From the NCBI GenBank assembly GCA_012798435.1, contig JAAZNF010000118.1, forward strand, positions 1 through 64,000: a DNA stretch of 64,000 nt. Reading direction: 5' to 3'. The stretch's first letter is position 1. Every line of letters starts with the position of its first letter. The translations under genes and the position numbers were made by a program. Shown piece after piece: positions 14,237 through 62,820 of the stretch. The notes beneath the pieces are model-generated. The model was not told the DNA's origin and searched no databases. It saw nothing but the letters and a program-made list of their open reading frames with translations. This stretch comes from Myxococcales bacterium (GTDB taxonomy: Bacteria > Myxococcota > B64-G9).

Positions 14237-14357
14237 CGGCTGGCCACTCTACGTCCCGGCCGGGGTGGGCTGTCAAGATGTTGTGATGCTGACCGTACCT
14301 TACCGTATGACCCATGGGTATGCCCGATTGGCGCGGCATCGTTCGGCAAACCTTCGT

Positions 14358-14487: not shown

Positions 14488-14618
14488 TGGACCAGGCCGT
14501 CCAGCTTGTTCGGGTTTTTCCTTGAATCAGCGGGATCAAGTCTTCCCCGAAGAAGATGGAGGTTCGGGTTGCCGGAGGTGCGGTCAGCGAGTCTGGGATG
14601 ATGGGTTTCTGCCCCGCC

Positions 14619-16706: not shown

Positions 16707-19700
16707 TCAATGGAAGTCGGGACAGCCCGGCACGGTGGCCGGGCAGACGGAGAGCCGCTGGATGCGGCCGGGGACACCGTCGACGCGGATGCGGGCCAGC
16801 ACGAACCGGCGCTGGGCGTCGGCGCCGAGCAGATCCTCTCGCGGATAGCCCGGAGCGTTCGGATCGAAGATCCCGGTGACCAGGCGGTAGGTTCCCGGGA
16901 CCGCGCCGGCCGGAAGCGAGAGGACGCGGCGCAGCTCGCGGCGCCGAGCCAGGAGGGGCCAGCGCTCGAACGGGATGGCCGGGTCGTAGTCGGCGTTCAC
17001 CACGATGGCATCGTTCTCGTCGACGAGGTGCAAGAAGATGCGGCGGCCGGCGGGGACGGGGCGTTCCAGCCACCACTCGGTCATGGTCTCGAACGAGAGG
17101 TCGCCGGTCTGGCGCAGCAGCACCAGGCGGGGCTCCGCCCGGGTCCGGTCCTCGAAACGCATCCCGTCGCCGCCCTCGATGGTGAGGGCGCCGAGCCGGA
17201 GGGCGTGGTCGGCCCGCTCGGTGACGATGGGCAGGCGGGGCCAGGGCGGGTCGGGATCGAACAGGCCCGCGATCACCTCGAAGGTGCCGCCCTGCGAGAA
17301 GGTCATGAGGTGTGGCCCATCGAGGATGGCCTGGCCGGTCTCCCAGGTCGCGGGCGAGGAGGGCGGCCCGTGATCGGCGTTGCTCACGATCACGCCCCCG
17401 GCGTCCACCCCGTGCAAGAAGACCTGGAGCCCGGCGGGCAGCGTCCCGCGCGGCTCGAGCGAGCGCCATTCCAGCGTGAGCCGCGCCGCGTCCGGGGGCA
17501 AAGGCTCGAACGAGACCACCCGCGCGCTCACCCGGTAGCGCAGGTCGGCGGGCTGCGGCGTCCCTGCGGGGAAATTCTCCGCCTCCAGCGTCCAGGTGTC
17601 GCGGTCGGTGCGGGTGCGCACCCCGCCGGAGAAGTCCGCCTCCTCGCGCATGAATCGGTCGTCGAGGAAGCGGTGGGCCGTCATGGCCTCGGTGGCGACG
17701 GCCTGGTGCAGGCGCGCCTGGCGGTTCGCCGTCCGCCGCGCCAGGGGATCGGCGGCGGCGGTGTCGAGACCGATCATGGGGACACCCGCCGCCAGCCAGG
17801 CGTGCAAGGCCGTCTCGCGCGCCTCGCCTTCCAGCACGGGCCAGGGGACCAGGATGGCATCATGGTATGAAAGTTCGAGGAGCGGCGCCGGGATCCCGAC
17901 CGGGGTGCCGTACACGGAATCGGCCCAGCGGTAGCGCCCGTCCGCCGCCTCGGGATCATAGGTTCGCAAATAGTTCGACCAGTAGATGTGGTCCAGGTGC
18001 GGCACGGCCCAGTCGGCCATCTGCTCGCTGGCGGTGAGGAGGCCGCGGCGGGACAGCTCCGCGAACATCTGCGCGCGGAAGGCCAGGCTCTCGGGGCGCC
18101 TCATGCGGTGGACGGCGTCGAAGCACTGGTCGGCGCTCACCGCCGTGAAGACGTCCAGGTACACCCCGCCCGGGACCACGCCGAGCGCTCCGAGCGCGTC
18201 ATAGTTGCGAATCAGGTACGGCAGCGCCCGGCTGGCGCACAGGATCTGTTGTGGGCCACCGGCCCAGAAGTCGATGACCGGCGGCAGCGAGCCGTCCCAT
18301 TGTTTGATGGCGTCCGTGCCGCCCGCGTACGACGGGGCGTCGAGGTAGAAGTCGCGGTAGTTGTCGTGCAACTCGAGCAGGAAGTCCTGCACCGGAGGGG
18401 TTCGCCCCAGGGCCTCGGCCATGGTGACGAAATCGGCCGTGCCTCCAGCCTGGGCGCACGGCCCGCAGTCCGGCGATCCGTCGGGAGCGGGCCGGCAGGG
18501 CGAGAGAGGATAGATGACGTCCGGGTGGAGGTTGTCGTAGCCGCGTTGTCCCCAGCCGTCCACGTGGACCACGCCGCGCACGATGGGCTCTTCGGCCGCG
18601 CTGGCGATGGCCACGGTCTTGGCCGCTACCTCCAGGAAGGAATCGCCGCAGTACATCCGGCCGCAGGGACACTGCGCCGGGTCGTCCGGCCGCGGGCAGG
18701 GGTGGTGCACGTCGTAGTAGCAGGTGCTGGCGGGGAAGAACACGCCGCCCAGCATCTTTTCGAGAGAGGGTTTGGCGGCTCGTTTTTCCGAAAGGGAGCG
18801 GAACCTCCCCGCTGCGCGGGCGAACTCGCGGTAGCGAAGCGCCAGGGTCGCATGGTCACCGCGATCGAAGGGAACGTACGACAGCTCGCGCCGCCCTCCA
18901 TCCCGGAACAGATCGAGCGCAGCGCGGAAGGTCGGGGTCACCCGCGGCGCCTCGCCGGTCACCTGGTGCACCCGCAGCGAGGCGTCGGCCTCGCCGTGCA
19001 CCACCACCAGCAGCGCCCGGCCGTCCGACTCCACCGCCCCGAACCACGGCATCCCCCATCCGGCGCTGGCTCCCTCCCATTCGGTGTGGAACACCGCCCG
19101 GCCGTCCTCGACGTACGACCAGATGCGGGTGGGAACCACCCAGCCCACCGGCAGCAGCAGGCCGTGCCAAAGCGGCAGCACAGCGTACCCGCTCCCGGGG
19201 ACCGAGAGCCGCGGCGCGTAGGGGAAGTACAGCCGGTCGAGATCCAGGCCGTAGTACTCGCCGTCGTTGACCGAGAGCCGGACGCGCACCTCGTCCGCGC
19301 CGGGCTCGAGGCACACCTCCCAGGTGAGGTCGATGTTCGTGTCCGCCAACGTACCCGGCGTGGCTTCGACGGGCAGCCGGGAGAAGACGGTGCGCGCGCA
19401 GCCGCGGTTCCCCTCCCACAGGGGGTTCTGCAGGATGCTGCGGGCGTCCGCCGGCGCGATGGTGCGCCACGGCCCCAGGTTGTCGCAGCGGCTCTCGCCG
19501 GCCTGGAGGATGCACACGATGTCGTGGTCCTCGGCATCCCGGTCCATGACCCAAGGGACACCGCCGATCCGGCCCACCTCCAGGCGGCCGTCGGGGCAGG
19601 CCCGGGCGAACACGCGGTCGTTCGCCACCCGCAGGCAGTTGCCATCCGCCTCTACGCTGACCCGCGCCACGCAGCGCGCGCGGCCGAGATCGCACGCCTG

Positions 19701-20513
19701 CTCCCGCTCGCAGTCGCCGTCGCTCGCGCAGCCGCAGACCCCGGCGATGCAGGCCTGGCCGGCTTCCGAGCCGCGGCAGTTCAGACAGGCTGGACCGCAG
19801 TGCGAGGCGCTGTCGCAAGCCCGGCACATCTCGGCATCGCACCACTCTCCGCCGGGGCAGGAGGTGCAGATCCCGCCACAGCCATCGTCGGCGCCGCCGC
19901 AGCGGCCCTGACAATCCGGCTGGCAACCGGTGCACCTGGCGTCTGCGCACACCTCGCCGCTCAGGCAGTCGGTGTCCGACAGGCAGCCGCAGGCCGCGTT
20001 CACGCAGGCGCGGTTGTTGCCCTGGACCTGGCAATCGAGACAGGCGGGGCCGCAATGCGCGGCGCTGTCGCAGGCCCGGCATCTCTCGGCATCGCACCAC
20101 TCTCCGCTGGGACAGGAGGTGCAGCTTCCGCCGCAGCCGTCGTCGGCACCGCCGCATCGTCCGCTACAATCCGGCACGCAGGCCTGGCAAGCGTTGGTGA
20201 GACACACCTCGCCGCGCTGGCATTCGGCTTCGCTGGTACAGCCGCAGACGCCAGCCACGCAGGCGCGGTTCGTGAGCCCGAGGGTGCAATCGCGGCAGTC
20301 GGCTCCGCAATGATTTGCCTGATCGCAGCGAAGGCAGCGGTCGCCGTCGCAGAACCACCCCGCCGGGCACCCCTCGCCGCAGCCGCGCGGCACGCAGCGG
20401 CCGTCTACGCAGATCAGCGTGCCGTCGCAATCGGTGTCGACCTCACAGGCCTCATCCTTGGGGCAGGCGGTGAGGAGCACGAGGGGCAATAAGCACAGGA
20501 GTCGTGCGGTCAT
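16707..20513 (-). CDS. Large lipoprotein (1268 aa) with N-terminal Myxococcus-type cysteine-rich repeats and an uncharacterised C-terminal domain of about 950 aa, possibly glycoside-hydrolase-like.
   Basis: Lipobox (LLTACPKDEA). Five or more tandem units of the form C..GCP.G..C....C..C....HCG..C..C. Long C-terminal region contains a VHVDGWGQRGYDNLHPD motif. An antisense shadow ORF (17988..20492 +) is rejected. Confidence 0.75.
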   Translation of the reverse strand: MTARLLCLLPLVLLTACPKDEACEVDTDCDGTLICVDGRCVPRGCGEGCPAGWFCDGDRCLRCDQANHCGADCRDCTLGLTNRACVAGVCGCTSEAECQRGEVCLTNACQACVPDCSGRCGGADDGCGGSCTSCPSGEWCDAERCRACDSAAHCGPACLDCQVQGNNRACVNAACGCLSDTDCLSGEVCADARCTGCQPDCQGRCGGADDGCGGICTSCPGGEWCDAEMCRACDSASHCGPACLNCRGSEAGQACIAGVCGCASDGDCEREQACDLGRARCVARVSVEADGNCLRVANDRVFARACPDGRLEVGRIGGVPWVMDRDAEDHDIVCILQAGESRCDNLGPWRTIAPADARSILQNPLWEGNRGCARTVFSRLPVEATPGTLADTNIDLTWEVCLEPGADEVRVRLSVNDGEYYGLDLDRLYFPYAPRLSVPGSGYAVLPLWHGLLLPVGWVVPTRIWSYVEDGRAVFHTEWEGASAGWGMPWFGAVESDGRALLVVVHGEADASLRVHQVTGEAPRVTPTFRAALDLFRDGGRRELSYVPFDRGDHATLALRYREFARAAGRFRSLSEKRAAKPSLEKMLGGVFFPASTCYYDVHHPCPRPDDPAQCPCGRMYCGDSFLEVAAKTVAIASAAEEPIVRGVVHVDGWGQRGYDNLHPDVIYPLSPCRPAPDGSPDCGPCAQAGGTADFVTMAEALGRTPPVQDFLLELHDNYRDFYLDAPSYAGGTDAIKQWDGSLPPVIDFWAGGPQQILCASRALPYLIRNYDALGALGVVPGGVYLDVFTAVSADQCFDAVHRMRRPESLAFRAQMFAELSRRGLLTASEQMADWAVPHLDHIYWSNYLRTYDPEAADGRYRWADSVYGTPVGIPAPLLELSYHDAILVPWPVLEGEARETALHAWLAAGVPMIGLDTAAADPLARRTANRQARLHQAVATEAMTAHRFLDDRFMREEADFSGGVRTRTDRDTWTLEAENFPAGTPQPADLRYRVSARVVSFEPLPPDAARLTLEWRSLEPRGTLPAGLQVFLHGVDAGGVIVSNADHGPPSSPATWETGQAILDGPHLMTFSQGGTFEVIAGLFDPDPPWPRLPIVTERADHALRLGALTIEGGDGMRFEDRTRAEPRLVLLRQTGDLSFETMTEWWLERPVPAGRRIFLHLVDENDAIVVNADYDPAIPFERWPLLARRRELRRVLSLPAGAVPGTYRLVTGIFDPNAPGYPREDLLGADAQRRFVLARIRVDGVPGRIQRLSVCPATVPGCPDFH

Positions 20514-30636: not shown

Positions 30637-30811
30637 GAAATTCCTGGCAACAGAGGCCGCGAGATAACTCCGATTTTCGAGATTTCGCGAACGTGTTGGC
30701 TGTGACGCCTCCGAAGGTCCCCGGTAGCTTGATAAATCGCGTCTGGCCGCGCTTGCACTTTGAGCATCGCAGCTAGCAGCACAAATCGTTCTACATAGTC
30801 TTCCTGGAAAA

Positions 30812-30937
30812 GGAAGGCATGCTTGCATGGTCTTCATATTTGCGGATTCAGCCGAAGCCCGACCGCTGTCAATGGTGAGCGTAGCGAATCGCGAAGCGAT
30901 CGAAGACCATTGACAGCGACGGTCGGGCGGAGGCTAC
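30812..30937 (-). repeat. Copy C of the dispersed structured repeat (reverse orientation).
   Basis: The reverse complement reads GTAGCCTCCGCCCGACCGTCGCTGTCAATGG ... CCATTGACAGCGGTCGGGCTTCGGCTGAATCCGCAAATATGAAGACCATGCaaGCATGCCTTCC. It carries compensatory changes relative to the other copies. Confidence 0.65.
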
Positions 30938-31009
30938 GAGAAGGACGCGGCGCACGAACGCACCAGCTCTGGAAGCCCCGCTTTTTTGTTACTCGATGGA
31001 AGGAGGAGA

Positions 31010-41245: not shown

Positions 41246-41352
41246 CCTTCCTCCCGGGGCACACGATCCCGTCGCGCGCTTGTCCTCCCCCTACCAGAAT
41301 CCGCGGGGGCTGGCAAGGGCGCGACGCAGGTTGGGGAGGCGAGGAGAAGACG

Positions 41353-41550
41353 ATGTCCGTGACCGGCCAGGCCATCCTCATGACCCTGTTCATGGCATAC
41401 TCGATCGGGTTCTTGTTCTTCATCGCGCGCGCCTCGGCGCGGCACGCTCCAGAAGCGGCACCGAAAAAACACACCCGCCTCGTCACCGGCGTGCTGGTGC
41501 TGGGCCTGCCGCTGTGCCTGCTGGTGTTGCTGGCCGGGCTGTTGCAGTAG
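41353..41550 (+). CDS. Small membrane protein (65 aa, 2 TM).
   Basis: Internal Met of ORF 41059..41550 preceded by GAGGAGAAGA 3 nt upstream. Hydrophobic segments (AILMTLFMAYSIGFLFFIA; LVTGVLVLGLPLCLLVLLAGLL). Confidence 0.4.
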   Translation: MSVTGQAILMTLFMAYSIGFLFFIARASARHAPEAAPKKHTRLVTGVLVLGLPLCLLVLLAGLLQ

Positions 41551-41612
41551 CGCCCGGACCATCCCCCCGTCTCCCTCCACGCAGCGGCGCTCGCTTGGTC
41601 ACATTTGCAGGT

Positions 41613-41740
41613 GTAGCCTCCGCCCGACCTTTGCCGTCAAGGGTTTTCAATCGCTTCGCGACTCGCTGCGCTCGCCCTTGACGGTGGTCGGGCTTCGGCT
41701 GAAATCGCTACCATGAAGAGCATGCGGTCATGCTCTTCCT
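41613..41740 (+). repeat. Copy D of the dispersed structured repeat.
   Basis: GTAGCCTCCGCCCGACCTTTGCCGTCAAGGG ... CCCTTGACGGTGGTCGGGCTTCGGCTGAAATCGCTAccatGAAGAGCATGcggtCATGCTCTTC. Confidence 0.7.
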
Positions 41741-41774
41741 CCATGAGGAAGATGAGATGATCCGGCTTGAGAGA

Positions 41775-41808
41775 CTGGCCGCGATGCCGTCAGAGCAAGC
41801 GCGGCCAG
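41775..41808. terminator. GC-rich hairpin between convergent genes (CTGGCCGCG-N16-CGCGGCCAG). Possible bidirectional terminator, with no U-tract.
   Basis: Perfect 9-bp inverted repeat about 35 bp after repeat D and about 220 bp beyond the stop of the LTD gene. Confidence 0.2.
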
Positions 41809-42028
41809 CCGCATTCTGCCTCACCCCCAGGTCTTGATCTCTTCATCCTTATCCCCTCGCTCCACTGTGGGGAGGGGGTCAGGGGGTGAGGTGCAACAAA
41901 GGGGGATGGTTTGATAGCCAGCGCGAACGGCGAAGGGGAGGTGTAGGCGCTCCCTGGGGAGACGCCCGCTCGCGGCATTCAGGGGTCAGGAGAGGGGCAG
42001 ACGGGGAGGAGGGAACGGGGTGCTGGCC

Positions 42029-44926
42029 TCAGGCCGAGCGGCGCCGGCGCAGGCCGGCGAGCGCGCCGAGGAGCAAGCCGAGCGAGGCCAGGGACGCCGG
42101 CCCGCCACCGAAGGAGCAGCCGCAGCCGCCGCCGTCGCCCGAGCCGCAGTCGGGATCCTGCTTGTCGGTGAACCCGTCGCAGTCGTTGTCCAGGTTGTCG
42201 TTGCAGGTGAGCTCGCGCGCCTCGGGCGGTTGCTTGGGCACGCACTGCTGGGGCACGCCCTCCTTGCACTTCTCGACCTCGTTGCGGCACTCGCCCACGC
42301 CACAGGTGTAGTTGCCGGCAAAGTCCTCGTCGGTGGAGCCGTCGCAGTCGTCGTCGATGGCGTTGCACAACTCCTGCTTGCCGCCGGTGGGCGACTCGTC
42401 GCACACGATGCCGTTGCCGGCCCCGTTGCACACGTAGTGCCCCTCGGCGCAGCTGTCCTCGTCGGAACCGTCGCAGGCCTGGCCCTTGTCCGGCCAGTCC
42501 TCGTCGATCAAGGTGTCGCAGTCATCGTCTTGGGAGTTGCAGATCTCTTCCTTGTGGACGGTCTCCTGGCACTCGACGCCGCTGTGATCGGCCTTGCACA
42601 CGTTGGCACCGTTCGCGCACAGATCGGTGTCGTCGCCGTCGCAAGATACGCCGACCGGGAAGCCCTCGTCGATCACGGGCGGGGTGTCGCAGTCGTTGTC
42701 CACCCCGTCGCATATCTCCGAAGCGCCGGGGTGAGTGAGCGGGTCAGCATCGTCGCAGTCGGTTCCACCGCAGGCGTGGTCGGCGAACTGGTCGTTGTCG
42801 CCGTCCTGGCAGGTGTTGTCGCACACGCCGTTCACGCACAGGTACCCTGGGTCGCACACGTGGCCGCAGGAGCCGCAGTTGCTGCGATCGCCCTGGATGT
42901 TCGTCTCGCAGCCGGCGGTGTTCGCGTCGCAGTCGTCCCATCCCGTTTCGCAGGCGCCCATCACGCAGGCGTTGTTCTGGCAGGTGCCGGCGGCGTGCGG
43001 GAACTGGGTGGTGCAGTCGTCGCCACAGGAGGCGCAGTTGGAGTCGGTGCCGAGCTGGGCCTCGCAGCCGTCGGCGGCGGTGGTATTGCAGTCGTACCAG
43101 TTGGCCTCGCAGGCGCCGGAGGCGATCACGCACTGGCCGGCCTGGCAGGTCTGGGTAGTGACGTGGGGGAGGTTGCACACCGTGCCGCAGGCGCCACAGT
43201 TTTGCGGGTCGGTCTGGGTGTTGGCGCCCTCGTCGGTGGCGCCGTCACAGTTGTCGTCCACTCCGTCGCAGTGGGTGTCGGCGGGGCCGGGGAGCACCTG
43301 GCCGTCGCAGGGCCCCCAGGATGTGCCGTCGCAGGTCTGGGTGCCGGCCTTGCAGGGCAGGTGCTGGTCGGTCCCGGCCGGGCCGTCGTAGCAGGGGCGG
43401 GTTTCACCGGCCGTACCGCACAGGCCGTTGATGTCGTTGAGCGAACGCGGGAACACCTGGTAGCCGTTGTTGGGCGGGGTGTCGGTGGAGTACTGCGCCA
43501 CCACCCCGACCAGCCCGATGGGCCAGGTGGGCTCGGGCGAGCCGTCGATGTTGGTGTCGGCGTCGATGCGCATGAGGAGCTTGCTCACCCCGGCGTCATC
43601 GGTGATCTCGATGTTGGCGTTGCGGGTGGCGGTGGGCCAGGTGTCGGGCGTCGAGGGCGTGGTGGTTGGGCTTACGCCGGTGATGCCGACCAGCACGCCT
43701 TCCAGCACCTCGGCGTTGGCCAGGATATCGGCCACGGTGTGGATCTCGGGCACCACCGGTTGGTTCTGGGCGATGCGCACGTACTTGATGCTGGTGATCT
43801 CGAACTTGCCGTTGTACTGCAACGGCTTTCCGGCCACGCGCAGCTCGTCGCCGAGCTGCATGGAGCTGGTCTGGCCGGCGGCGAAGATGAAGATGCCGGA
43901 GGTGGCGTCCTGGATGGCCACCTCGCCGTTGGTGAAGGTGTTGGGCGCAGAGACGACACCCTGCACGGTGAAGATGGCGTTCGGCGTGTTGTCCAGGATG
44001 TCCGGGACGAAGTTGCTGTTGCCGTCGGTGCGGGCCCACAGCATGGGCACGATCCCGAAGTAGAGCTGGATGCTGGTGTTGCTGGGCTGGCCGGCCAGGT
44101 CCTTGACCCCGACCGCGGTGAGCGTGGTCAGGCTCTGGGCGGCGATGCCGGAGATGCCGGTCAGGTGGACCAGGGTGTTGTCGGTGCCGTCGAGGGCGGC
44201 GGTGGTGGGGTGCACGTCGCTGCCGGCGTTGAGGGTGTAGTTGGCGGCCGTCTCGGCCGAGGCGGCTTCCAGCGCGGTGCCGAACCACACGTCCACCGCG
44301 TCGTTGCCGGCGGCCATGACGTGCACGATCTCCGGCCCGAACACCTGGTTGGAGTACACCGAGTTCTGGGCCCGGGGGGTTCCCCGGATGGCGTTGTTGG
44401 CGGAGTCGTGTCCGTTGATGGTCACGCCGTCGTTGGTGCCCCAGTTGGCCGAGTTGTTGCCGGGGAGCTGCGGGTTGCGCCGCTCCATGGTGGCCTTGCT
44501 GCCGGTCGTGGCCGAGCCCGCGTACCAGCCGACGGTGTTGCAGGACACCAGGTCGATGTCGTTGTTGGCGGCATCCTTGAGGACCAGGTCGTCGCCGGTG
44601 TTGGCGAAGGAGATGGTGGTTGCCAGGATATCGGCAGCGATGTCGTTCACCACCGTTTCCGCCTTTTCCACCAGGAAATACCCGTTCGCCGGGATCGTCC
44701 CGGACAGGGTATAGGTGGTGCTCACGTCATCGATGATGGTCCAGCCCGTCAGGTCGATGTCGGAGGCGGTGTTGTTGAGGAGTTCCAGCCATTCGTCGGT
44801 GCCGCTGGCCTCGGTGCCGCCCCAGGCCACCTCGTTGATCACTACATCCAGCGGGTTCGCCGCCAGCGCCGGGGCCGTGAGCGCCAGGGCCATCACCAAT
44901 CCCAGAATCGCCGCTCTCATGTGCAT
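42029..44926 (-). CDS. Secreted lamin-tail-domain (LTD) protein with C-terminal Cys-rich putative metal-binding repeats and a MYXO-CTERM tail.
   Basis: Signal peptide. LTD signature (NEVAWGGTEASGTDEWLELLNN...GWTI.DD). Many CDG.DNDCDG / C..G.C units. C-terminus DGGGCGCSFGGGPASLASLGLLLGALAGLRRRRSA. The antisense shadow ORF 42020..45250 is rejected. Confidence 0.8.
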   Translation of the reverse strand: MHMRAAILGLVMALALTAPALAANPLDVVINEVAWGGTEASGTDEWLELLNNTASDIDLTGWTIIDDVSTTYTLSGTIPANGYFLVEKAETVVNDIAADILATTISFANTGDDLVLKDAANNDIDLVSCNTVGWYAGSATTGSKATMERRNPQLPGNNSANWGTNDGVTINGHDSANNAIRGTPRAQNSVYSNQVFGPEIVHVMAAGNDAVDVWFGTALEAASAETAANYTLNAGSDVHPTTAALDGTDNTLVHLTGISGIAAQSLTTLTAVGVKDLAGQPSNTSIQLYFGIVPMLWARTDGNSNFVPDILDNTPNAIFTVQGVVSAPNTFTNGEVAIQDATSGIFIFAAGQTSSMQLGDELRVAGKPLQYNGKFEITSIKYVRIAQNQPVVPEIHTVADILANAEVLEGVLVGITGVSPTTTPSTPDTWPTATRNANIEITDDAGVSKLLMRIDADTNIDGSPEPTWPIGLVGVVAQYSTDTPPNNGYQVFPRSLNDINGLCGTAGETRPCYDGPAGTDQHLPCKAGTQTCDGTSWGPCDGQVLPGPADTHCDGVDDNCDGATDEGANTQTDPQNCGACGTVCNLPHVTTQTCQAGQCVIASGACEANWYDCNTTAADGCEAQLGTDSNCASCGDDCTTQFPHAAGTCQNNACVMGACETGWDDCDANTAGCETNIQGDRSNCGSCGHVCDPGYLCVNGVCDNTCQDGDNDQFADHACGGTDCDDADPLTHPGASEICDGVDNDCDTPPVIDEGFPVGVSCDGDDTDLCANGANVCKADHSGVECQETVHKEEICNSQDDDCDTLIDEDWPDKGQACDGSDEDSCAEGHYVCNGAGNGIVCDESPTGGKQELCNAIDDDCDGSTDEDFAGNYTCGVGECRNEVEKCKEGVPQQCVPKQPPEARELTCNDNLDNDCDGFTDKQDPDCGSGDGGGCGCSFGGGPASLASLGLLLGALAGLRRRRSA

Positions 44927-46370: not shown

Positions 46371-46452
46371 GACGCTCTTCTACCGCGAGCTTCCCGGGTG
46401 ATTCAAGGCCGAGCCCAACCAGCTCCGGGATCCATAGAGAATGCCTACAAGC

Positions 46453-46938
46453 CTATTCGTGAGAGTGGCCGTCCGAAAGCAGCACCCGCCAGATAAACTC
46501 GACCGCTTGCGGGATGGCCGCGGCCACCGCCGGGGTGCACTCCTCGGAGAAGGTGTAGGGGTCGCACACTCCGATGGCGAACACCCGCACCTCCTCGGGC
46601 ATGGAAAGCTCCATGCGCCTTCCCAGCTCCAGGCAGGTCATGAGCCCCGCGTTGTGGAGCGTGAGCGGCACGCAGGATGAGCCCAGCTCGGCCAGTGGCA
46701 CCTCGCGCACCTGGCCTGGTGGCAGACGCCCCGGCTCCAGCGAGTCCACGATCACTACCCGGCGGAAGCCCTCCAGCTCGTGCAGCAGCTCGACCCCGCC
46801 CACGCAGGCCTCGCGCAAGACGGCCGTCCCCGCCGGCAGGCGCGAGAAGAGCTCGCGGGCGACGAGGTGCCCCACCCGGTCGTCCGAGAGGATCGGGTTG
46901 CCCAGCCCCAGGATCAGAAGCTCGCCCGTGTATGTCAT
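46453..46938 (-). CDS. [NiFe]-hydrogenase maturation endopeptidase (HycI/HybD/HyaD family).
   Basis: Start at MTYTGELLILGLGNPILSDDRVG (Met104 of ORF 46453..47247). The upstream part of that ORF runs through repeat E and is rejected. Alternative ATG starts at 46962 and 46965. Confidence 0.8.
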   Translation of the reverse strand: MTYTGELLILGLGNPILSDDRVGHLVARELFSRLPAGTAVLREACVGGVELLHELEGFRRVVIVDSLEPGRLPPGQVREVPLAELGSSCVPLTLHNAGLMTCLELGRRMELSMPEEVRVFAIGVCDPYTFSEECTPAVAAAIPQAVEFIWRVLLSDGHSHE

Positions 46939-46963
46939 TCGGCTGCCATCTTTGATGCTCATC

Positions 46964-47108
46964 ATAGCCTCCGCTCGGCCTGTACCGTCAAGGGTCTGCG
47001 CGGGCTTCGCCCGCTCCGATCGCTTCGCGACTCGCTCTGCTCGCCCTTGACGGCGGCCGAGCTGCGGCTGGTTGGCTGTCATGAGGGGAAAGGAGCCTTT
47101 CCCCTCCA
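46964..47108 (+). repeat. Copy E of the dispersed structured repeat, located inside the hydrogenase operon between mvhA and the maturation protease.
   Basis: ATAGCCTCCGCTCGGCCTGTACCGTCAAGGG ... CCCTTGACGGCGGCCGAGCTGCGGCTggttggctgtcatGAGGGGAAAGGagCCTTTCCCCTC. Contains an extra GC-rich mini-hairpin (GCGGGCTTCGCCCGC). Confidence 0.7.
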
Positions 47109-47296
47109 CTTTGTCGGGGAAGTCGCAACAGGATGGCTCGGAGAGAATCCCTCCGTAACCAGCTCCCGTCAGCGTGGCTGTCGGTGGACTGGATGCCGGT
47201 TGTTTGCAAAAAGGAATCCGCGAACAGGGCATCTCCATTGGAGGCATACAAGACGAACATCCGAAGAAGGAAAAAACGGAAAAAGCCGAAGCCGGC

Positions 47297-48760
47297 TCAG
47301 TCGCGCTTGAGGTGGTAGCGCACGCTGCCGTCGGCTTCGCGCACGGTGATCTCCAGCGGCATCTGCCCAGGCAGTGAGTGGGTGGCGCAGGAGAAGCACG
47401 GATCGTAGGCGCGGAAGGCCATCTCCACCATGTTGAGCAGCCCCTGCTTCGGCTCCTTGCCCTTGAGCACCTGCTGGGCGGCCTTCTTGACCGACATCGA
47501 GATGGGGGCGTTGTTGTTGGTGGTGCCCACGATGAGGTTGGCCTTGGTCACGATGCCGTTCTTGTCGGTCGTGTAGTGGTGCGTCAGCGTGCCGCGCGGC
47601 GCCTCCACGATGCCCACGCCATCGGTGGGGGTGGCGGTGGGGATGGTGTGCACGTCCTGCGACAGGATCTCCGGGTCGTTGGCGAGCTGCACCCAGCGCT
47701 CGGCCGAGTACAGAAGCTCGACGAGCCGCGCCCAGTGGATGGCCAGGGTGTGGTGCGAGGGCTTGCCCCCGAGGGTCTTGTACATCTTGTCGTACTGCTC
47801 CTGGGCCTTGGGGGTGGCCATGCCGTCGGCGGCGTTGAGGCGCGACAACGGGATGGCGCGGTAGATGCTGCTGTCCGCGCCTTCGACGAAGCCCTTCCAG
47901 CCGCGCTTCTTGAGGAAGGGGTACTTGAGGTACGAGTACGTCTCGACGTGCTCGGCGACGTTGTCCAGGTACTCGGGGGCGCTGTATTTGGCCACCTCGC
48001 GGCCGGCCGCGTCCTTCACCCGCACCTTGCCGTCGTAGAAGTTGACCTTGTTGTTCTCGTCCACCAGGCCCATGTCGCCGACCTCCAGGCGGTAGCCCGG
48101 CGACAGGATGAGATCGAGATAGGCCTTGTTCTTGAGCACCACGTCCTCGAACAGCTTGAGAGAAAACTCGGCGAACTCGACGCACTTCGGGCCCTTCTCC
48201 TTGAGCTCGGCCACGATCTCCTTGGTGATGCCCTTGCTTACCCCGCCGGCGATGCACCACACCGGGTGGGTGGAGCGGCCGGCGATCTTGATCTGGAGAT
48301 CCTGGGCCCAGCGCCGGTGCTCGATGACCTTCTTGCCGATCTCCAGCCCCACCTTCTCGATCACCCCCAGCACGTTGCGCTTGTCGGCCGGAGCGTCGGG
48401 CCCCACCACGAAGTCCGGCGCGCCCAGGTAGTAGAAGTGCAGGGTGTGGTCGTAGAAGTAGTACACGCCTTCATAGAAGAGCTGGCGCAGTTTCCGCGCC
48501 GCCGGGGGGATCTCCACGTGGTACACCGCGTCTACCGCCTTGGCCGCGGCCATGTGGTGGGCCGCCGGGCACACCCCGCAGATGCGGGTGACGATGCGCG
48601 GCACTTCCTCCACCGGGCGCCCCACCACGAAGCGCTCGAAGCCGCGCAGCTCCGGGATCTGCAAGTAGACGTTGCCCACCTCGCCCTTGTCGTCGAGGAA
48701 GATCTCGATCTTGCCGTGGCCTTCCAGGCGGGTGATGGGATCGATGCTCACGCTTTTCAT
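47297..48760 (-). CDS. mvhA: [NiFe]-hydrogenase large subunit, Mvh/F420-non-reducing type (MvhA-like).
   Basis: N-terminal RICGVCPAAHHMAAAKA (RxCGxC) and C-terminal DPCFSCATHSL (DPCxxCxxH), followed by a cleavable tail. 487 aa. Confidence 0.9.
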   Translation of the reverse strand: MKSVSIDPITRLEGHGKIEIFLDDKGEVGNVYLQIPELRGFERFVVGRPVEEVPRIVTRICGVCPAAHHMAAAKAVDAVYHVEIPPAARKLRQLFYEGVYYFYDHTLHFYYLGAPDFVVGPDAPADKRNVLGVIEKVGLEIGKKVIEHRRWAQDLQIKIAGRSTHPVWCIAGGVSKGITKEIVAELKEKGPKCVEFAEFSLKLFEDVVLKNKAYLDLILSPGYRLEVGDMGLVDENNKVNFYDGKVRVKDAAGREVAKYSAPEYLDNVAEHVETYSYLKYPFLKKRGWKGFVEGADSSIYRAIPLSRLNAADGMATPKAQEQYDKMYKTLGGKPSHHTLAIHWARLVELLYSAERWVQLANDPEILSQDVHTIPTATPTDGVGIVEAPRGTLTHHYTTDKNGIVTKANLIVGTTNNNAPISMSVKKAAQQVLKGKEPKQGLLNMVEMAFRAYDPCFSCATHSLPGQMPLEITVREADGSVRYHLKRD

Positions 48761-48778: not shown

Positions 48779-49750
48779 TCAGCGGTCGCCCAGGTGGCGG
48801 CGGTGCAGCAACGACAGCGGCAACCCGAAGCGGTAGAAGTACCCCGCCGGATCCGGGATGCCGTCCAGGATGCGCTCCACCTCCTCGGGATCCTCGGAGT
48901 CGATGTGCGAGGCGATGGCGGCCAGGATCTTGGCGCCCTGGTCGGTGACGTTGGGCAGCGGGCCGTAGCAGCCGCGGCAGGGCATGTTGGAGCCGATGCA
49001 GCGCCAGCCGCAGCCGGCGCGGGTGGCAGCGCCCAGGCACACGATGCCCTGCTCCATGAAGCAGATCTCGGGGTCGGGGTGGGTGAGGTGCCGCCGCTGG
49101 AACTTCTTGAACTTGAGTTCCTTCTTCTTGCGCGGGCAGTCCTCGCACATGGCCTTGTCCGAGGCGCCCACCACCGCCCCCTTGGCGGGCAGCTTGCCGG
49201 AGGCCACCGCGCCCAGCACGATGGCGATCTGCTCCGGGTTGGGCGGGCAGCCGGGCACGGTGTAGTCGACGTCGATGGTCTGGGCCAGGGTGCGCACGTT
49301 CTCGTAGAGCTCGGGGATCTTCAGCGTGCCCTCGGGGACCTTGGTCTCCACCTGGGGTACGATCTTCTGGAGGTTTTCGGTCGAGGGGCTCTCCAGGTAG
49401 GCCGAGGCGAAGATGTCCTTCTTCGACCAGAAGTTGGCCAGCCCCGGGATGCCGCCCATGTGGGCGCAGGCGCCAAAGGCCACCATGAGCTTGCTCTTCT
49501 TGCGCAAGAGGCGCGCCACGTGCTCGTTCTCACTGTTGCGGATGGCGCCGTTGAACAGGGTGATGTCCAGGTACCCGTCGGGGTAGCCCTCGACGTCCTT
49601 GTACTTGAAGTCCATGGCGCAGGGCCAGAACTTCACCTCGGCCACCTGGATCACGTCCAGGATCTTCTCGTGGATGTCCAGGAAGGCCACGTCGCAGCCG
49701 CCACAGCTCGCTCCCCAATACACGCCCACCTTCAGTTTGGCTTGGCTCAT
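48779..49750 (-). CDS. mvhG: [NiFe]-hydrogenase small subunit, MvhG-like.
   Basis: N-terminal VYWGASCGGCDVAFLDIHE, the proximal-cluster motif typical of F420-non-reducing hydrogenase gamma subunits. Additional Cys clusters (CPPNPEQ; CEDCPRKK; CLGAATRAGCGWRC). Confidence 0.85.
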   Translation of the reverse strand: MSQAKLKVGVYWGASCGGCDVAFLDIHEKILDVIQVAEVKFWPCAMDFKYKDVEGYPDGYLDITLFNGAIRNSENEHVARLLRKKSKLMVAFGACAHMGGIPGLANFWSKKDIFASAYLESPSTENLQKIVPQVETKVPEGTLKIPELYENVRTLAQTIDVDYTVPGCPPNPEQIAIVLGAVASGKLPAKGAVVGASDKAMCEDCPRKKKELKFKKFQRRHLTHPDPEICFMEQGIVCLGAATRAGCGWRCIGSNMPCRGCYGPLPNVTDQGAKILAAIASHIDSEDPEEVERILDGIPDPAGYFYRFGLPLSLLHRRHLGDR

Positions 49751-49766: not shown

Positions 49767-50297
49767 TCAGGCGGTGGCCTGGCTCTTTTTCGGGAGCGCC
49801 TTGCGCACCTCGAGGTTCAGCGGTCCCAGGGCGCGCACTTGCTCCACGAACTCGTTGATCACCCGCTGGTAGCGCTCGCCTTCCGAGGCGGAGATCCACT
49901 CCAGGCGCAGGCGGCCCTCCTCGATGCCCATGTCCTTGAGAAGGCGCTTGAGCAGCGGAATGCGCCGCAGGGTCTTCATGTTGCCGCTCTGGTAGTGGCA
50001 GTCACCCGGGTGGCAGCCGCCGAGGAGCACCCCGTCCGCGCCCTCGCGGAAGGCCTTGAGCACGAACGTCGGGTCCACCCGGCCGCTGCACATCACCCGC
50101 ACCACCCGCACGTTGGGGGCGTACTTCATGCGCGAGGTGCCGGCGAGGTCGGCCCCGGTATAGGTGCACCAGTTGCACAAGAACCCCACGATTTTCGGTT
50201 CGAAGCTCACGGCGCGGATACCTCCTTCTAGGCTGGTTCGCTCCCACCGATCCAGGAAGCCGGAAGATCCAATACCCAAACCGGTAGAGGTTTTCAA
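49767..50297 (-). CDS. mvhD: MvhD-like hydrogenase iron-sulfur subunit ([2Fe-2S], couples the hydrogenase to HdrA).
   Basis: FLCNWCTYTGADLAG ... VMCSGRVDP ... LGGCHPGDCHY motifs, characteristic of MvhD. The true start is probably an internal codon. Confidence 0.8.
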   Translation of the reverse strand: MKTSTGLGIGSSGFLDRWERTSLEGGIRAVSFEPKIVGFLCNWCTYTGADLAGTSRMKYAPNVRVVRVMCSGRVDPTFVLKAFREGADGVLLGGCHPGDCHYQSGNMKTLRRIPLLKRLLKDMGIEEGRLRLEWISASEGERYQRVINEFVEQVRALGPLNLEVRKALPKKSQATA

Positions 50298-50304
50298 ATA
50301 GTTT

Positions 50305-52302
50305 CTAGAGGCTGAGCAACCCCTCGATTTCCGAGAAGATTTGCCGGTCGCCGAAGTGCCGCGCCAGGATGGCCGAGCTGGGGCAGGCCGCCACGCAGGT
50401 GCCGCAGCCCTTGCACAGGGCGTCGTTCACCGCGGCACGCTTGCGGGCCTCGTCGAAGGTGATGGCGTTGTAGGGGCACAGCCCGATGCAGGTGCGGCAG
50501 CCCGAGCACAGCTCGTCCTGGACGTGGGCGGTGGTGGCCTCGATCTCGATCTCCTTGCGGGTGATGAGCGAGAGCGCCTTGCTGGCCGCGGCCGAGCCCT
50601 GGGCCACGGTGTCGGGGATGTCCTTGGGGCCCTGGCAGGCGCCGGCGATGAACACCCCCTCGTTGGTGGTGGACACGGGCGCGAGCTTGGGGTGCTGCTC
50701 GAGGAAGAAACCGTCCGCGCCGCGGCTGACCAGGAAACGGCGGCCCACCTCCTCGGCGTCGAAGCGCGGCTCGAAGGCAGGGGTGAGCACCACCATGTCC
50801 ACCGGCACGTGCAAGACTTGCTGGAGCAGGGAGTCCTCGGCCACCACCACGAGCTGATGGTCCTCGAGACCCTCGGGCACCGCGGCTGCGGGCACCATGG
50901 CCTTCCACTCGGCCCCGCCCCACACCTGGGCGCCCTTGCCGCGCACGAAGCGCACCCCTTCCTCCTGCAGGCGCTTGTAGAACTCCTCGTAGCCTTTCCC
51001 GAAGCAGCGCATGTCGATGTAGAAGTTGTACACCCGCGCCTCGGGGAGCTTCTCGCGGAGGAGGTGGGCGTACTTCAGGGCGTACATGCAGCACACCCGC
51101 GAGCAGTAGCGGTGATGGTTCTCGTCACGGCTGCCGGTGCAGTGCAGGATGGCCACGCTGCGGGGCGCGCGCCCGTCGCGGGTCTGGATGACGCCGTTCG
51201 TCGGCCCGGCGGCGTTGTTGAGCCGCTCGAACTCGAGCGCGCTGTACACCCCCGGCAGGCGTCCGTACCCCAGCTCGGGGATGCGCCGGCCGTCCATGGC
51301 CTGGAAACCGGTGGCCAGCACGATGGTGCCCACCGTCACCTCCTCGACGCGGTCCTGCTGCGTAAAGTCGATGGCCGCTGCCTCGCAGAACTTCACGCAC
51401 ACCCGGCACTTGCCGTTCTTGAGGTAGGCGCAGGCGTTCTTGTCGATGATGGGCTTGTTGGGCACCGCCTGGGCGAAGGGCAGGTAGATGGCCTTGCGCT
51501 TGGCGAGCCCCTGCTCGAACTCCGAGTCGGCCTTGTAGGGGCACTTCTCGATGCACAGGCCGCAGCCGGTGCACTTGTCGTGGTCCACGTAGCCCGCCTT
51601 GCGGCGGATCTTGACCTTGAAGTTGCCCACGAAGCCCGAGACCTCCTCCACCTCGGACCAGGTCATGAGCTTGATGTTGGGGTGCGAGCCGGCCGCCACC
51701 ATCTTGGGCGTCAGGATGCAGGCGGCGCAGTCCAGGGTGGGGAAGGTCTTGTCGAACATGGCCATGTGGCCGCCGATGCTGGGCTCGCGCTCCACCAGCA
51801 CCACCTGCACGCCGGCGTCGGCGAGATCCAGCGCCGCCTGGATGCCGGCGATGCCGCCGCCCACCACCAGGGCCGAGGGGGTGATCTCCACCCGGCGCAT
51901 CTCGAGCGGCTGGTGCTCGCGGGCCCTACGCACCGCGGCCGCCACCAGCGCCTTGGCCTTCTCGGTGGCGGCGCCCTTGCCCTCGGTCACCCAGGAGCAC
52001 TGCTCGCGGATGTTGGCGATCTGTACCAGGAAGGGGTTGAGCCCGGCCTCCTGGGCCGCCCGGCGGAAGGTGCGCTCGTGCATCAGTGGTGAGCAGGCGG
52101 CCACCACCACCGCGTCCAGCCCGTTCTTGCGGATGTCCTCCTGGAGCAGCGCCTGGCCCGGATCCGAGCACATGAACTTGTAGGTGCGCGAGAGCGTCAC
52201 GCCGGGGATGCCGCGGGCGAAATCGGCCACCTCCTCCACGTTGACCATCCCCGCGATGTTGGTGCCGCAGTGACACACGTACACGCCAATCTTGTATGGC
52301 AT
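50305..52302 (-). CDS. hdrA: Heterodisulfide-reductase subunit A-like flavoprotein (HdrA; FAD + multiple [4Fe-4S]).
   Basis: N-terminal YVCHCGTNIAG. FAD-binding GxGxxG (VVGGGIAGIQAALDLADAG). Ferredoxin CxxCxxCxxxCP motifs. C-terminal Cys cluster. 665 aa. Confidence 0.9.
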   Translation of the reverse strand: MPYKIGVYVCHCGTNIAGMVNVEEVADFARGIPGVTLSRTYKFMCSDPGQALLQEDIRKNGLDAVVVAACSPLMHERTFRRAAQEAGLNPFLVQIANIREQCSWVTEGKGAATEKAKALVAAAVRRAREHQPLEMRRVEITPSALVVGGGIAGIQAALDLADAGVQVVLVEREPSIGGHMAMFDKTFPTLDCAACILTPKMVAAGSHPNIKLMTWSEVEEVSGFVGNFKVKIRRKAGYVDHDKCTGCGLCIEKCPYKADSEFEQGLAKRKAIYLPFAQAVPNKPIIDKNACAYLKNGKCRVCVKFCEAAAIDFTQQDRVEEVTVGTIVLATGFQAMDGRRIPELGYGRLPGVYSALEFERLNNAAGPTNGVIQTRDGRAPRSVAILHCTGSRDENHHRYCSRVCCMYALKYAHLLREKLPEARVYNFYIDMRCFGKGYEEFYKRLQEEGVRFVRGKGAQVWGGAEWKAMVPAAAVPEGLEDHQLVVVAEDSLLQQVLHVPVDMVVLTPAFEPRFDAEEVGRRFLVSRGADGFFLEQHPKLAPVSTTNEGVFIAGACQGPKDIPDTVAQGSAAASKALSLITRKEIEIEATTAHVQDELCSGCRTCIGLCPYNAITFDEARKRAAVNDALCKGCGTCVAACPSSAILARHFGDRQIFSEIEGLLSL

Positions 52303-52311
52303 GGCTTCCTC

Positions 52312-53457
52312 CTACAGGGTCTCGGCGACCAGCTCGGCCAGGTCGCGCACTTGGATGGCGTCTTCCCGCTCCAGGCCCAGGCGGCTGTCCTCGAACATGT
52401 TGACGCAGTACGGGCAGCCGGTGGCGAGCACGCTCGCCCCCACCGCCATGGCCTCGGGCAGGCGCAGGTCGGAGAAGCGCTCGCCACGCTTGGTCTCCAT
52501 CCACATGCGGCCGCCGCCGCCGCCACAGCACAGGCTCTGCTTCTTGTGGCGGAACATCTCGCGGAAGGTCACACCCGGCAGAGCCGAGAGCACCGCCCGC
52601 GGCGCGTCGAAGATGTCGTTGTGGCGGCCGAGGTAGCACGGGTCGTGCCAGGTGACGGTGCGGTCGAGCTTCTTGTGTGGCTTGAGCTTGCCCTCGAAGA
52701 TCAGCCGCTGCATGATCTCGGAGGCGTGGTGCACCTCGACCTTGACGCCGAAGGCGGCGTATTCGTTCTTGAAGGTGTGGTAGCAGTGGGGCGAGAGGGC
52801 GATCACCTTGCGCACGCCGGCCTTCTCGAAGGCCGCGGCGTTGCTCTTGCCGAGCGAGGTGAACGTGCCCTCGTCGCCGATCTTGCGCACCGCCTCTCCG
52901 CAGCAGCTCTCCTCGGGCCCCAACACGCCCGCGCGCACCCCGCCGGCCTGGAGCACCTTCCACAGCGCGTCGGCGATGCGACGGCTGCGCTTGTCGTAGG
53001 ACGGCATGCAACAGGCGGACAGGAGGTACTCGTGCTTCTTCGGATCGAAGCGCGGGATCCCCGCCGACTCGGTCCAGGCGTTGCGCTCCTCTCGCTTGCC
53101 GTTCCAGGGGTTGCCCTCGCCCTTCACCGAGCCCAGCGCCGAACGCAGGCTCTGCGGGATGAGGCCCGTCTCGCCGATCATGGCGCGGGTGCTGCGCACC
53201 AGGTCCACGATGGCCACGCCGCGCGGGCAGCGCACCTGGCATGAGGCGCAGGTGGTGCACTTCCACAGGTCCTCGCCCTCGTAGCCCGGCAGCCCGAGTT
53301 GGGCCAGCCGGATGAGCCGGCGGATGTTGAGGGGCTCGACGAAACTCCAGGGACAGCTCCCGGTGCAGGTGCTGCACTGGTAGCACAGGTCGAGGTCGTG
53401 CGCTCCGTACTCCTTGAGCGCATCGGCCACCTCCAAAAACGGCGTCGCGGCAGGCAT
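52312..53457 (-). CDS. HdrD-like protein (fusion of an HdrC-like 2x[4Fe-4S] domain and HdrB-like CCG domains).
   Basis: CYQCSTCTGSCP and CTTCASCQVRCP ferredoxin motifs followed by two CCG-type Cys-rich domains (SCCGE ... CCGGGGG). 10-bp gap to hdrA. Confidence 0.8.
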   Translation of the reverse strand: MPAATPFLEVADALKEYGAHDLDLCYQCSTCTGSCPWSFVEPLNIRRLIRLAQLGLPGYEGEDLWKCTTCASCQVRCPRGVAIVDLVRSTRAMIGETGLIPQSLRSALGSVKGEGNPWNGKREERNAWTESAGIPRFDPKKHEYLLSACCMPSYDKRSRRIADALWKVLQAGGVRAGVLGPEESCCGEAVRKIGDEGTFTSLGKSNAAAFEKAGVRKVIALSPHCYHTFKNEYAAFGVKVEVHHASEIMQRLIFEGKLKPHKKLDRTVTWHDPCYLGRHNDIFDAPRAVLSALPGVTFREMFRHKKQSLCCGGGGGRMWMETKRGERFSDLRLPEAMAVGASVLATGCPYCVNMFEDSRLGLEREDAIQVRDLAELVAETL

Positions 53458-62419: not shown

Positions 62420-62564
62420 TCCCGCGCGGCCGCCGGCCGCAACCCCAAGGAGCACCCGGCGCCGCTGGCCAGGCGGGGACGTGCGGCCAGTTGCTCCAGC
62501 CCAACCTGCTTCTCCCATCATCGAAGATCGGATAGGGCCATGGTGCTTCACGGACTAGCCTGCG

Positions 62565-62820
62565 CTCGGCTTGAGCAGGCAAGGGCCTTCACGGGCAAGC
62601 CCGCTCCGGTCCCTACGGGACTCGCTTCCCTAATCCCCGGATAACGCGAACGGGTCCTGCCGCCTCTTTCCCCGGCTCTCTCCCGAAAGATCGTTCGCCG
62701 GGGGCCCCATCCGCGTCACCCCTTCGCGTACAAAATCCATCGAGGAATCATTGGAGCCGAGTCTTATCTGAGGATTAGGGTCGCTTCGCTCGCCCTTGAC
62801 TGCTGAGGTTGCAATCATGG
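62565..62820 (+). repeat. Copy F of the repeat family. Degenerate/composite: about 165 bp inserted into the core, bounded by a short inverted repeat. The 3' hairpin is missing.
   Basis: CTAGCCTGCGCTCGGCTTGAGCAGGCAAGGGCC ... CGCTTCCCTAATCC[insert]GGATTAGGGTCGCTTCGCTCGCCCTTGACTGCTG. The insert is bounded by CCCTAATCC / GGATTAGGG. Confidence 0.45.

Follow-up and report, generated by a model that had tools for sequence, protein, structure and literature searches.

A hairpin-forming repeat family resembling REPINs and BIMEs, with one copy in the spacer that separates a hydrogenase gene from the gene of its maturation protease in a Myxococcales bacterium

A stretch of 64,000 nt from a Myxococcales bacterium (contig JAAZNF010000118.1, positions 1-64,000; hereafter the window) carries an hdr-mvh operon in which a structured repeat, copy E, lies between the gene for the large subunit of a NiFe hydrogenase (mvhA) and the gene for its HycI-type maturation protease. 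Copy E belongs to a repeat of ~145-165 nt that was named E145. Judged by its sequence and architecture, E145 resembles the hairpin-forming doublets of repetitive extragenic palindromic (REP) sequences known as REPINs, as well as the bacterial interspersed mosaic elements (BIMEs), and appears to be a previously undescribed family of interspersed hairpin-forming repeats. Its copies are intergenic and conserved in structure; at the mvhA-protease junction the element is specific to the lineage of the window, and it bears no terminator signature on the operon strand. With moderate confidence, copy E is best explained as a member of this family that was added to a once-tight junction by non-autonomous spread and has been near-neutral, with passive consequences for the operon; both the mode of spread and the neutrality are what we infer from these observations.

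The window holds five full copies of E145 and one partial copy, all of them intergenic (Table 1). Copies were scored with a covariance model, R1, built from 19 of them, and repeat finding and an nhmmer profile recover the family as well. All three approaches place copy E inside the mvhA-protease gap (R1 match 46963-47125(+), 129.8 bits, E = 2e-28), as had been proposed in an earlier note on this DNA, which had also correctly described the element as opposite in orientation to the operon. The family as such lies far beyond chance. Successive copies in the window are spaced by 2.7-15.6 kb and occur in both orientations, which amounts to roughly one in every 10 kb, and copy E is ~80-83% identical to its nearest paralogues. 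Among the 16 copies whose neighbouring genes are known on both sides, six lie between convergent genes and one between divergent genes, while six, such as copy E, are antisense and three are sense to co-directional neighbours. Avoidance of divergent regions, combined with an otherwise mixed orientation, is usual for REP-like repeats.

The 5' boundary of the element is sharp at TAGCC (46965), which is preceded by G in most copies. Here begins a long imperfect hairpin that is composed of a foot (AGCC/GGCT), a 3x3 internal loop, a middle stem (GCTCGGCC/GGCCGAGC), an inner stem (ACCGTCAAGGG/CCCTTGACGG) and small apical hairpins. The folding energies of copy E are -82.3 kcal/mol on the plus strand and -83.1 kcal/mol on the minus strand (z = -5.7 and -6.7, respectively), and the long hairpin folds equally well on both. 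An apical insertion of 18 nt, with a small extra hairpin as its core, marks a subfamily that also includes the partial copy at 62556 and copies at six further loci (L004, L017, L018, L023, L051 and L079). A linker of ~13 nt leads from the long hairpin to a second hairpin (HP2), which is located 189-191 nt from the mvhA stop, in agreement with the distance of about 190 bp that the earlier note gave for its terminal hairpin. An alternative third hairpin (HP3) reuses the 3' arm of HP2, so that the two are mutually exclusive, and because of this third hairpin the conserved element runs to ~47121 and does not end at 47108, where it had first been placed. Taken copy by copy, HP3 outperforms shuffled tails in 52% of the 44 distinct copies compared (p <= 0.05), and its arms are found in several compensated forms (TCTTCCTC/GAGGAAGA, CCTCTTC/GAAGAGG, CCTTCATC/GATGAAGG and TTCCCC/GGGGAA).

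Conservation of the fold was assessed in 50 distinct copies taken from the window, a related metagenome-assembled genome (MAG) and metagenomes. Standard pairs fill 96% of the pair cells, and both-sided (compensatory) changes occur in 19 of 40 pairs, including all ten pairs of HP2; none of 500 shuffles attained such values, and sliding the partner column by 1-3 positions reduced pairing to 30-48%, all of these figures overstating independence, since the copies are related to one another and were aligned by fitting to the model. An unfitted MAFFT alignment gives the same picture. Wobble mismatches favour neither strand (18-43 G.U versus 38 A.C), and the lack of bias therefore indicates that the structure is conserved as a palindrome, which fits conservation at the DNA level.

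REPINs are REP doublets that form hairpins and are mobilised by RAYT transposases, as described for Pseudomonas and Enterobacteria (PMC3116915, PMC3337134). When the definition from PMC3337134 is applied, the inverted doublet is present in E145: two inverted units of ~31 nt, a 5' arm TAGCCTCCGCYCGRC..GTCAAGGG and a 3' arm CCCTTGAC..GYCGRGC..GGCT, enclose a variable spacer that preserves the hairpin, giving a hairpin of ~100 nt in which 96% of cells pair across the 50 copies. Further shared features are the G-TAG at the 5' foot of most copies, the many extragenic copies (six in 64 kb, and at least 23 loci in the fragmented MAG), vertical inheritance at orthologous sites with copies 80-90% identical, and complex clusters with other repeats. 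E145 differs from REPINs in its asymmetric arms and the 3x3 internal loop in the foot, in the extra 3' module HP2/HP3 outside the doublet, in its host phylum, Myxococcota, and in a sequence that is unrelated to known REPs. In REPINs, every REP unit has a short imperfect palindrome of its own; in E145, inspection of the alignments revealed a palindrome GCCGA-GCT-TCGGC in the 3' arm and nothing comparable in the 5' arm (GCCTCCGCTCGGC). REPINs are also accompanied by a cognate single-copy RAYT gene (an HUH-Y1 transposase) that the repeats flank. A tblastn search with a RAYT query yielded no match at E < 0.5 in the 635 kb sampled, which include no complete genome; a weak match next to the L022 copy was rejected, as it is not an open reading frame (ORF) of that kind. 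Membership of E145 among the REPINs is incomplete because no RAYT was found, the arms are asymmetric and the 3' module is additional.

The second likeness concerns mosaic organisation. In about half of the E145 copies, another palindrome, which is REP-like (x-CGCG-GGGCCnnAAGAGCCAG-CGCG-x'), lies ~15 nt further downstream; some copies are extended by 45 nt at the 5' end or have a third motif, rich in G, behind them, several are truncated, and a hairpin-only symmetric variant exists in L011. In the sister lineage E145 is usually flanked by REP-like units on both sides. The BIMEs of E. coli are composed of REP or palindromic units combined with linker motifs. E145 is mosaic in the same way, since the 5' extension, the 18-nt insertion, the 3' REP-like palindrome and the G-rich motif are all optional and relatives have REP-like units in tandem arrays, the correspondence being one of architecture only, with no sequence relationship to E. 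coli BIMEs; its copies also lie between operon genes and at gene 3' ends. The basic unit is 145 nt in E145 and about 35 nt in BIMEs, and the sequence families are unrelated. As for the REP-like family itself, the loop GGGCCnnAAGAGCCAG is conserved between CGCG clamps and the stems differ among copies. REP-like units in the window occur only on the 3' side of E145 (Table 1), and the family is tandemly amplified in the sister lineage (L037 16180-16385, 16760-16860 and 9900-9960). In the third intergenic motif, GGGGGTGAGG comes after a hairpin CCCCTC..CCACnGTGGnGAGGGG; this motif is located at ~41830-41900 of the window and is often found downstream of E145 (L005, L019, L039, L045, L078 and L080).

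Miniature inverted-repeat transposable elements (MITEs) such as Correia/NEMIS, ERIC/IRU and RUP resemble E145 in their length of 100-170 nt, their long inverted repeats and their capacity to fold as RNA. Classical MITEs are similar also in lying within operons, being co-transcribed with neighbours and differing in presence and orientation among close relatives. In contrast to them, E145 copies are diverged rather than burst-like and lack a target-site duplication: in 41 copies, 6-8-nt direct repeats shared between the 14 nt upstream and 95 nt around the 3' end were only parts of flanking REP-like units, with no consistent offset. Nor are the inverted repeats terminal, as they cover only 46966-47069 and leave HP2/HP3 (47083-47121) outside at one end. 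The window and 85 loci showed no parent insertion sequence with E145-like ends, whole genomes being outside this search. Rfam gave no match at gathering threshold in the whole window, and a permissive search of 46900-47320 returned only snoRNA hits at chance level (E = 7-9). E145 is not an attC site, not a known RNA family and not an operon-strand terminator. No relevant literature on REP or MITE families of Myxococcales was found and, to our knowledge, such repeat elements are essentially undescribed in Myxococcota.

The history of the junction was traced through orthologous operons, which were found via homologues of the protease. In three distant relatives, with protease identities in the range of 56-60%, mvhA and the protease gene overlap by 14 nt (L032) or are separated by 7 nt (L034) or 10 nt (L035), and the ancestral junction was therefore tight. 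Close relatives (L025, L026, L027 and L037; protease 91% and MvhA 97% identical) have a spacer of 175 nt that cannot be aligned to that of the window and contains a degenerate REP-like unit; neither the covariance model nor blastn detected E145 in it. Over the 70 nt that precede the protease gene, a further close lineage (L028-L031; protease 89% identical) resembles L025. From these comparisons, the mvhA-protease spacer grew within this clade, with E145 present there only in the lineage of the window among the available data. The earlier suggestion that the element is an addition to the junction is borne out by the tight junctions of distant operons and the E145-free spacer of close relatives, and no equally long orthologous spacer without the element was found among the operons compared. 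That the insertion is recent, another option raised at the time, is not borne out: the divergence of copy E from its nearest paralogues indicates that it is not very recent, and other copies are found at orthologous sites in the related MAG.

Orthologous sites also illustrate how copies are retained and lost. The copy at 28075 is common to the window and the related MAG (L002). At the site of the 14357 copy (window 14237-14618 versus L090 2263-2500), the MAG has kept HP3, HP2 and the linker and lacks 158 nt, in which the long hairpin and another 76 nt of flanking sequence were contained; it is a natural deletion derivative. Downstream of the LTD/MopE gene, where the window has the 41612 copy, relatives carry E145 elsewhere in the same intergenic region and in reverse orientation. 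Between this gene and a small membrane ORF (window 41290-42029 versus L037 16124-16885), REP-like arrays are located on both sides. E145 copies are thus inherited at orthologous sites, undergo decay by deletion and join up with other repeats. Such behaviour lends some credit to an alternative history, in which copy E was ancestral to the clade of the window, L037 and L028 and was deleted or overwritten in the sister lineages: copies do persist (28075 versus L002), decay by deletion is known from the 14357 orthologue, copy E is not young, and the spacer of the sister lineages is expanded as well. However, the covariance model and blastn revealed no E145 remnant in the sister spacers, whereas the 14357 site of the MAG kept HP2/HP3, and the sister spacers hold a different, REP-like unit instead. 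This history is considered unlikely.

On the minus strand, a terminator-like hairpin comes first at the mvhA stop, then ~150 nt of unique DNA with a lower GC content; HP3 and HP2 follow as reverse complements, then the long hairpin and, after 26 nt, the ATG of the protease. The terminator-like site, which the earlier note had missed, is the only one in a scan of 46700-47500 (match 47298-47273(-)), holds two of the 16 runs of five or more T on the minus strand of the window, such runs being rare at 68% GC, and lies outside the repeat; it looks like a canonical intrinsic terminator. In the same scan, no U-tract follows either E145 hairpin on the operon strand, where AUGACAGCC comes after the HP2 reverse complement and GGCUAUGAUG after the long hairpin. 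E145 shares with terminators and attenuators its GC-rich hairpins, the exclusive pairing of HP2/HP3 in the manner of terminator and antiterminator, and, in some copies, a T-rich tail on the plus strand; it differs in that copy E lacks a U-tract on the operon strand and that the terminator-like site of the spacer is separate and non-repeated. The role of terminator or attenuator that had been considered for the element is not supported by this arrangement, and any attenuation into the protease gene would, judged by the sequence, be due to the mvhA-proximal terminator instead of E145. The terminator-like site suggests that transcription of the protease gene is set apart from that of the structural genes, with or without E145. 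No sigma-70-like promoter was found in the scan of 46700-47500. Two promoter candidates were discarded: the conserved TTGACG has no acceptable -10 element at 16-18 nt (TATGAT lies at 19 nt, in copy E only), and a sigma-54-like GG-N10-GC at ~47215 has four mismatches to the consensus.

Translation signals add a further aspect. The annotated ATG of the protease (46938) is preceded only by a weak Shine-Dalgarno (SD)-like GATGG, and the GGGAG located upstream of the gene in L028 is absent from the window. Within the element, a GGAGG (46972-46968), partly paired in the hairpin foot, stands 5 nt ahead of an in-frame ATG at 46962, and translation might begin at this codon, eight codons earlier; the resulting extension of 8 residues, MSIKDGSR, is without counterpart in the protease homologues. 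As a general SD donor, the GGAGG of E145 was rejected, the 5' ends of other copies not being regularly followed by start codons. It is against this background that E145 could be viewed as a co-opted cis-acting RNA, the reverse complement of which modulates protease expression from the hdr-mvh mRNA as an RNase III/E site, a 3' stabiliser of the mvhA segment, a roadblock that reduces read-through or an SD donor. The very stable minus-strand hairpin, the ideal GGAGG-N5-ATG compared with the weak GATGG, and the switch-like exclusion between HP2 and HP3 would suit such a role. A precedent is provided by REP, ERIC and Correia elements, which are known to influence how mRNAs are processed and how stable they are; by analogy, E145 in a read-through RNA could attract an RNase or stabilise a 3' end. 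Nevertheless, the missing U-tract after either hairpin, the partial pairing of the GGAGG and the inconsistent position of start codons after other copies speak against it, as do the mixed orientation to neighbours (6 antisense versus 3 sense), the protease homologues without an N-terminal extension and the G.U versus A.C counts, which carry no RNA-strand signal. The sequence does not show that E145 controls the operon, and a regulatory RNA at this position is regarded as rather improbable.

The distribution of the family was examined with a 23-base pattern taken from the 5' arm, for which exact matches were sought in 185,579 species-representative genomes. The pattern was found at 23 loci in one MAG (uncultured Myxococcales, CAZLNM01), many of them at contig ends; this MAG is 90-94% identical to the window where syntenic. 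Outside Myxococcales genomes, the pattern is present at L010 1-84, where a 50-kb contig that was binned with the Armatimonadota (GC 67%) terminates, and this 5' portion of E145 may represent a binning error or a cross-phylum occurrence. Metagenomes contain the pattern at 48 loci, with high-scoring full copies coming from two samples that carry a sister lineage. Soil contigs yielded weaker matches of 55-81 bits, mostly at one orthologous locus (L038, L042, L043, L047, L049, L062, L064, L067, L069, L072, L075 and L085), where an E145-like long hairpin starts at the TAG stop of a 151-aa hypothetical RHH-like protein whose only named relative is from a Rokubacteria MAG. The hairpin at this locus is 91-99% identical between contigs, the upstream sequence is 72-92% identical and the downstream sequence is unrelated between groups. 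The hairpin marks a synteny break; it lies next to a MqsR/MqsA pair, with Mrr_N and HATPase_c_3 genes also nearby. The RHH-like gene was rejected as a defining partner of the hairpin, and their pairing is a lineage-restricted juxtaposition, because homologues at 52-58% identity lack the hairpin. The E145 family is not confined to one lineage, its occurrence outside Myxococcales resting on unclassified contigs.

Taken as an addition by non-autonomous spread, copy E would have the following history. The ancestral junction, at which the two genes overlapped slightly or lay no more than 10 nt apart, opened up in this clade, leading in the lineage of the window to a terminator-like hairpin, ~150 nt of unique sequence and an antisense E145 whose end lies 26 nt ahead of the protease start. 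The arrival of the element was most likely due to non-autonomous spread at the DNA level, being either hairpin-dependent and catalysed in trans or recombinational, and its persistence is probably near-neutral. As passive consequences, translational coupling between mvhA and the protease would be lost, any read-through transcript would contain a hairpin of about -80 kcal/mol, and the protease would rely on read-through of the mvhA terminator or on some other promoter.

Several observations weigh against this account. The 3' end of E145 faces the stop codon of a gene in 13 of 17 cases, which is a weak hint of selection on orientation. The strong compensatory conservation could mean a selected function rather than neutrality, and the same could apply to the soil hairpin, given its higher identity than that of the flanks. 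No transposase or RAYT gene was found near any copy, and all-against-all clustering of the ORFs around copies recovered only paralogues of LTD/MopE type and of sigma-54 activators. Finally, blastn provided no clean empty site for copy E, the spacers of relatives being unalignable; for this reason a lineage-specific insertion and an older copy that was replaced in the sisters are inseparable, and the exact insertion boundaries and target of copy E are undefinable. A more ambitious proposal would make E145 a vertically persistent, structure-selected replicator with three hairpins, distributed among Myxococcota and unrelated soil bacteria, possibly Rokubacteria, and co-opted by its hosts as a modular insulator or switch that, in the hdr-mvh operon, acts with the terminator to uncouple the protease from the structural hydrogenase genes and tune it down relative to them, and possibly supplies a ribosome-binding site and start codon; it is deemed quite unlikely.

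E145 could also be a recognition site at the DNA level, either a recombination or attachment site or a protein-bound single-stranded hairpin, with the mvhA-protease spacer as a point of exchange. Integron attC/VCR sites are comparable in being imperfect palindromes of ~100 nt whose structure is conserved over sequence, and the soil hairpin recalls attC in directly following a small ORF and marking a synteny break beside a toxin-antitoxin pair, exactly where identity of the flanks ends and in a region with accessory or defence-type genes. In addition, the mvhA-protease spacer and the region past the LTD gene are wholly different in close relatives, and the structure is conserved on both strands. 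Unlike attC, E145 has no R''/R' core sites (RYYYAAC/GTTRRRY) and ends in TAGCC...GGCTGA; the window shows no cassette array with a common orientation and a spacing of ~0.5-1 kb, its copies being of mixed orientation and kilobases apart. No recombinase or integrase gene adjoins any copy in the window or the Myxococcales loci, Pfam scans of neighbouring genes revealed no integrase (IntI), the window and its relatives agree in gene order except in the spacers, and homologues of the soil gene occur without the hairpin, which together render a recognition site very doubtful. Highly improbable as well is a plus-strand small RNA gene, or multi-copy small RNA family, that ends at HP2/HP3 and is antisense to the mvhA-protease spacer in copy E, since the T-rich stretch after HP3 in some copies (L006 GGGGTTTTTATC, L020, L023), the 3' ends that face a convergent stop as an independent transcription unit would, and the better plus-strand folding of the 28075 copy, which is due to G-U pairs, are opposed by an unconserved region upstream of TAGCC with no promoter-like site found, the lack of a T-tract in most copies including copy E (CACTTTGTC), A.C mismatches that equal or exceed G.U, the absence of an Rfam match, and a density and range of truncated, rearranged and mosaic copies that are typical of a repeat and not of small RNA genes.

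For genome annotation, E145 is relevant as a source of false N-terminal extensions, such as the 264-aa ORF found here, and R1 could be used to mask it; it also breaks assemblies, as many copies are at contig ends. The family adds a structured, REPIN/BIME-like repeat from Myxococcota, and with copy E there is a specific instance of repeat-driven spacer growth that pulled apart a hydrogenase gene and a protease gene once tightly coupled. If the element or the adjacent terminator sets the ratio in which protease and hydrogenase are expressed, the locus would illustrate, on a small scale, how mobile repeats can rewire the stoichiometry of an operon; at present it is an ordinary case.

Table 1. Coordinates of E145 copies, parts of copy E, spacer features and hdr-mvh genes in the window.
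Feature	Position	Strand	Basis or remark
Copy E, whole unit from TAGCC to the end of the third hairpin	46965-47121	+	R1, alignments; antisense to the hdr-mvh operon
E145 copy between two minus-strand genes, antisense to both	14357-14502	+	R1
E145 copy between two plus-strand genes, sense; orthologous copy ends MAG contig L002	28075-28220	+	R1
E145 copy between convergent genes, then REP-like unit (~30745-30785, -)	30794-30938	-	R1
E145 copy, then REP-like unit (41775-41815, +)	41612-41757	+	R1
Truncated, diverged E145 copy: 5' arm, 18-nt insertion and apical region only	62556-62633	+	Repeat finding, nhmmer
Long imperfect hairpin, ~104 nt	46966-47069	+	Folding, covariation
Small extra hairpin GCGGGC-TTC-GCCCGC, core of the 18-nt apical insertion	47000-47014	+	Alignments
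HP2, 10-bp GC-rich hairpin GAGGGGAAAG-GAGC-CTTTCCCCTC	47083-47106	+	Folding; terminal hairpin of the earlier note
HP3, alternative hairpin TTCCCC...GGGGAA	47099-47121	+	Shuffle test, p = 0.06 in copy E
26 nt between E145 5' end and protease start; in-frame ATG 46962	46939-46964	-	Sequence reading
Unique lower-GC spacer	47122-47269	.	blastn against all loci: self only; GC 0.48-0.63; unlike the L037 spacer
Intrinsic-terminator-like site overlapping the mvhA stop: GAGCCGGCTTCGGCTT then TTTCCGTTTTTT	47270-47298	-	Terminator scan; outside E145
CCG/HdrBC-like protein	52312-53457	-	Pfam
HdrA	50305-52302	-	Pfam
MvhD	49767-50297	-	Pfam
NiFe hydrogenase small subunit	48779-49750	-	Pfam
MvhA-type NiFe hydrogenase large subunit, 487 aa	47297-48760	-	Pfam PF00374; 97% identical to the L037 orthologue
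HycI-type hydrogenase maturation protease, 161 aa, start MTYTGELL	46453-46938	-	Pfam PF01750

The hdr-mvh module lies on the minus strand of the window, which has a GC content of 68%, and its genes were identified by Pfam. The gap between mvhA and the protease gene measures 358 nt (46939-47296), which confirms the gap noted earlier. The accompanying statement that the other genes of the module are 8-20 bp apart does not apply to hdrA-mvhD if translation of MvhD begins, as in relatives, at a GTG, which gives VSFEPKIVGF; the mechanical ORF uses a TTG instead. MvhD probably starts at this GTG, and the hdrA-mvhD gap would then be ~94 nt (window 50210-50304). The ORF track does misread the element as an extension of the protease, as had been pointed out, with an ORF at 46453-47247 running through it. 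The proposed protease start at ATG 46938 (MTYTGELLILGLGN) is in accordance with an identical 161-aa protein in NCBI, annotated for a Myxococcales MAG (P0001), and with the N-termini of homologues: nine of these start 4-9 residues ahead of the LILGLGN(P) motif in the alignment, and the closest start with MNWKGELL, at the same codon as the ATG of the window. On the other side of the protease gene, the window (46380-46452) is without the AAA_14/DUF4143 ATPase gene that relatives have on the opposite strand between the protease and FAD oxidoreductase genes (L037 10505-11620; L009 1-1164). Other repeats of the window lie within genes and include a 235-nt tandem duplication in a 1274-aa ORF (19691-20180), three zinc-ribbon repeats at the C-terminus of a Band_7 protein (14622-14861) and Cys/Asp-rich repeats in the LTD/MopE protein (42160-43270).

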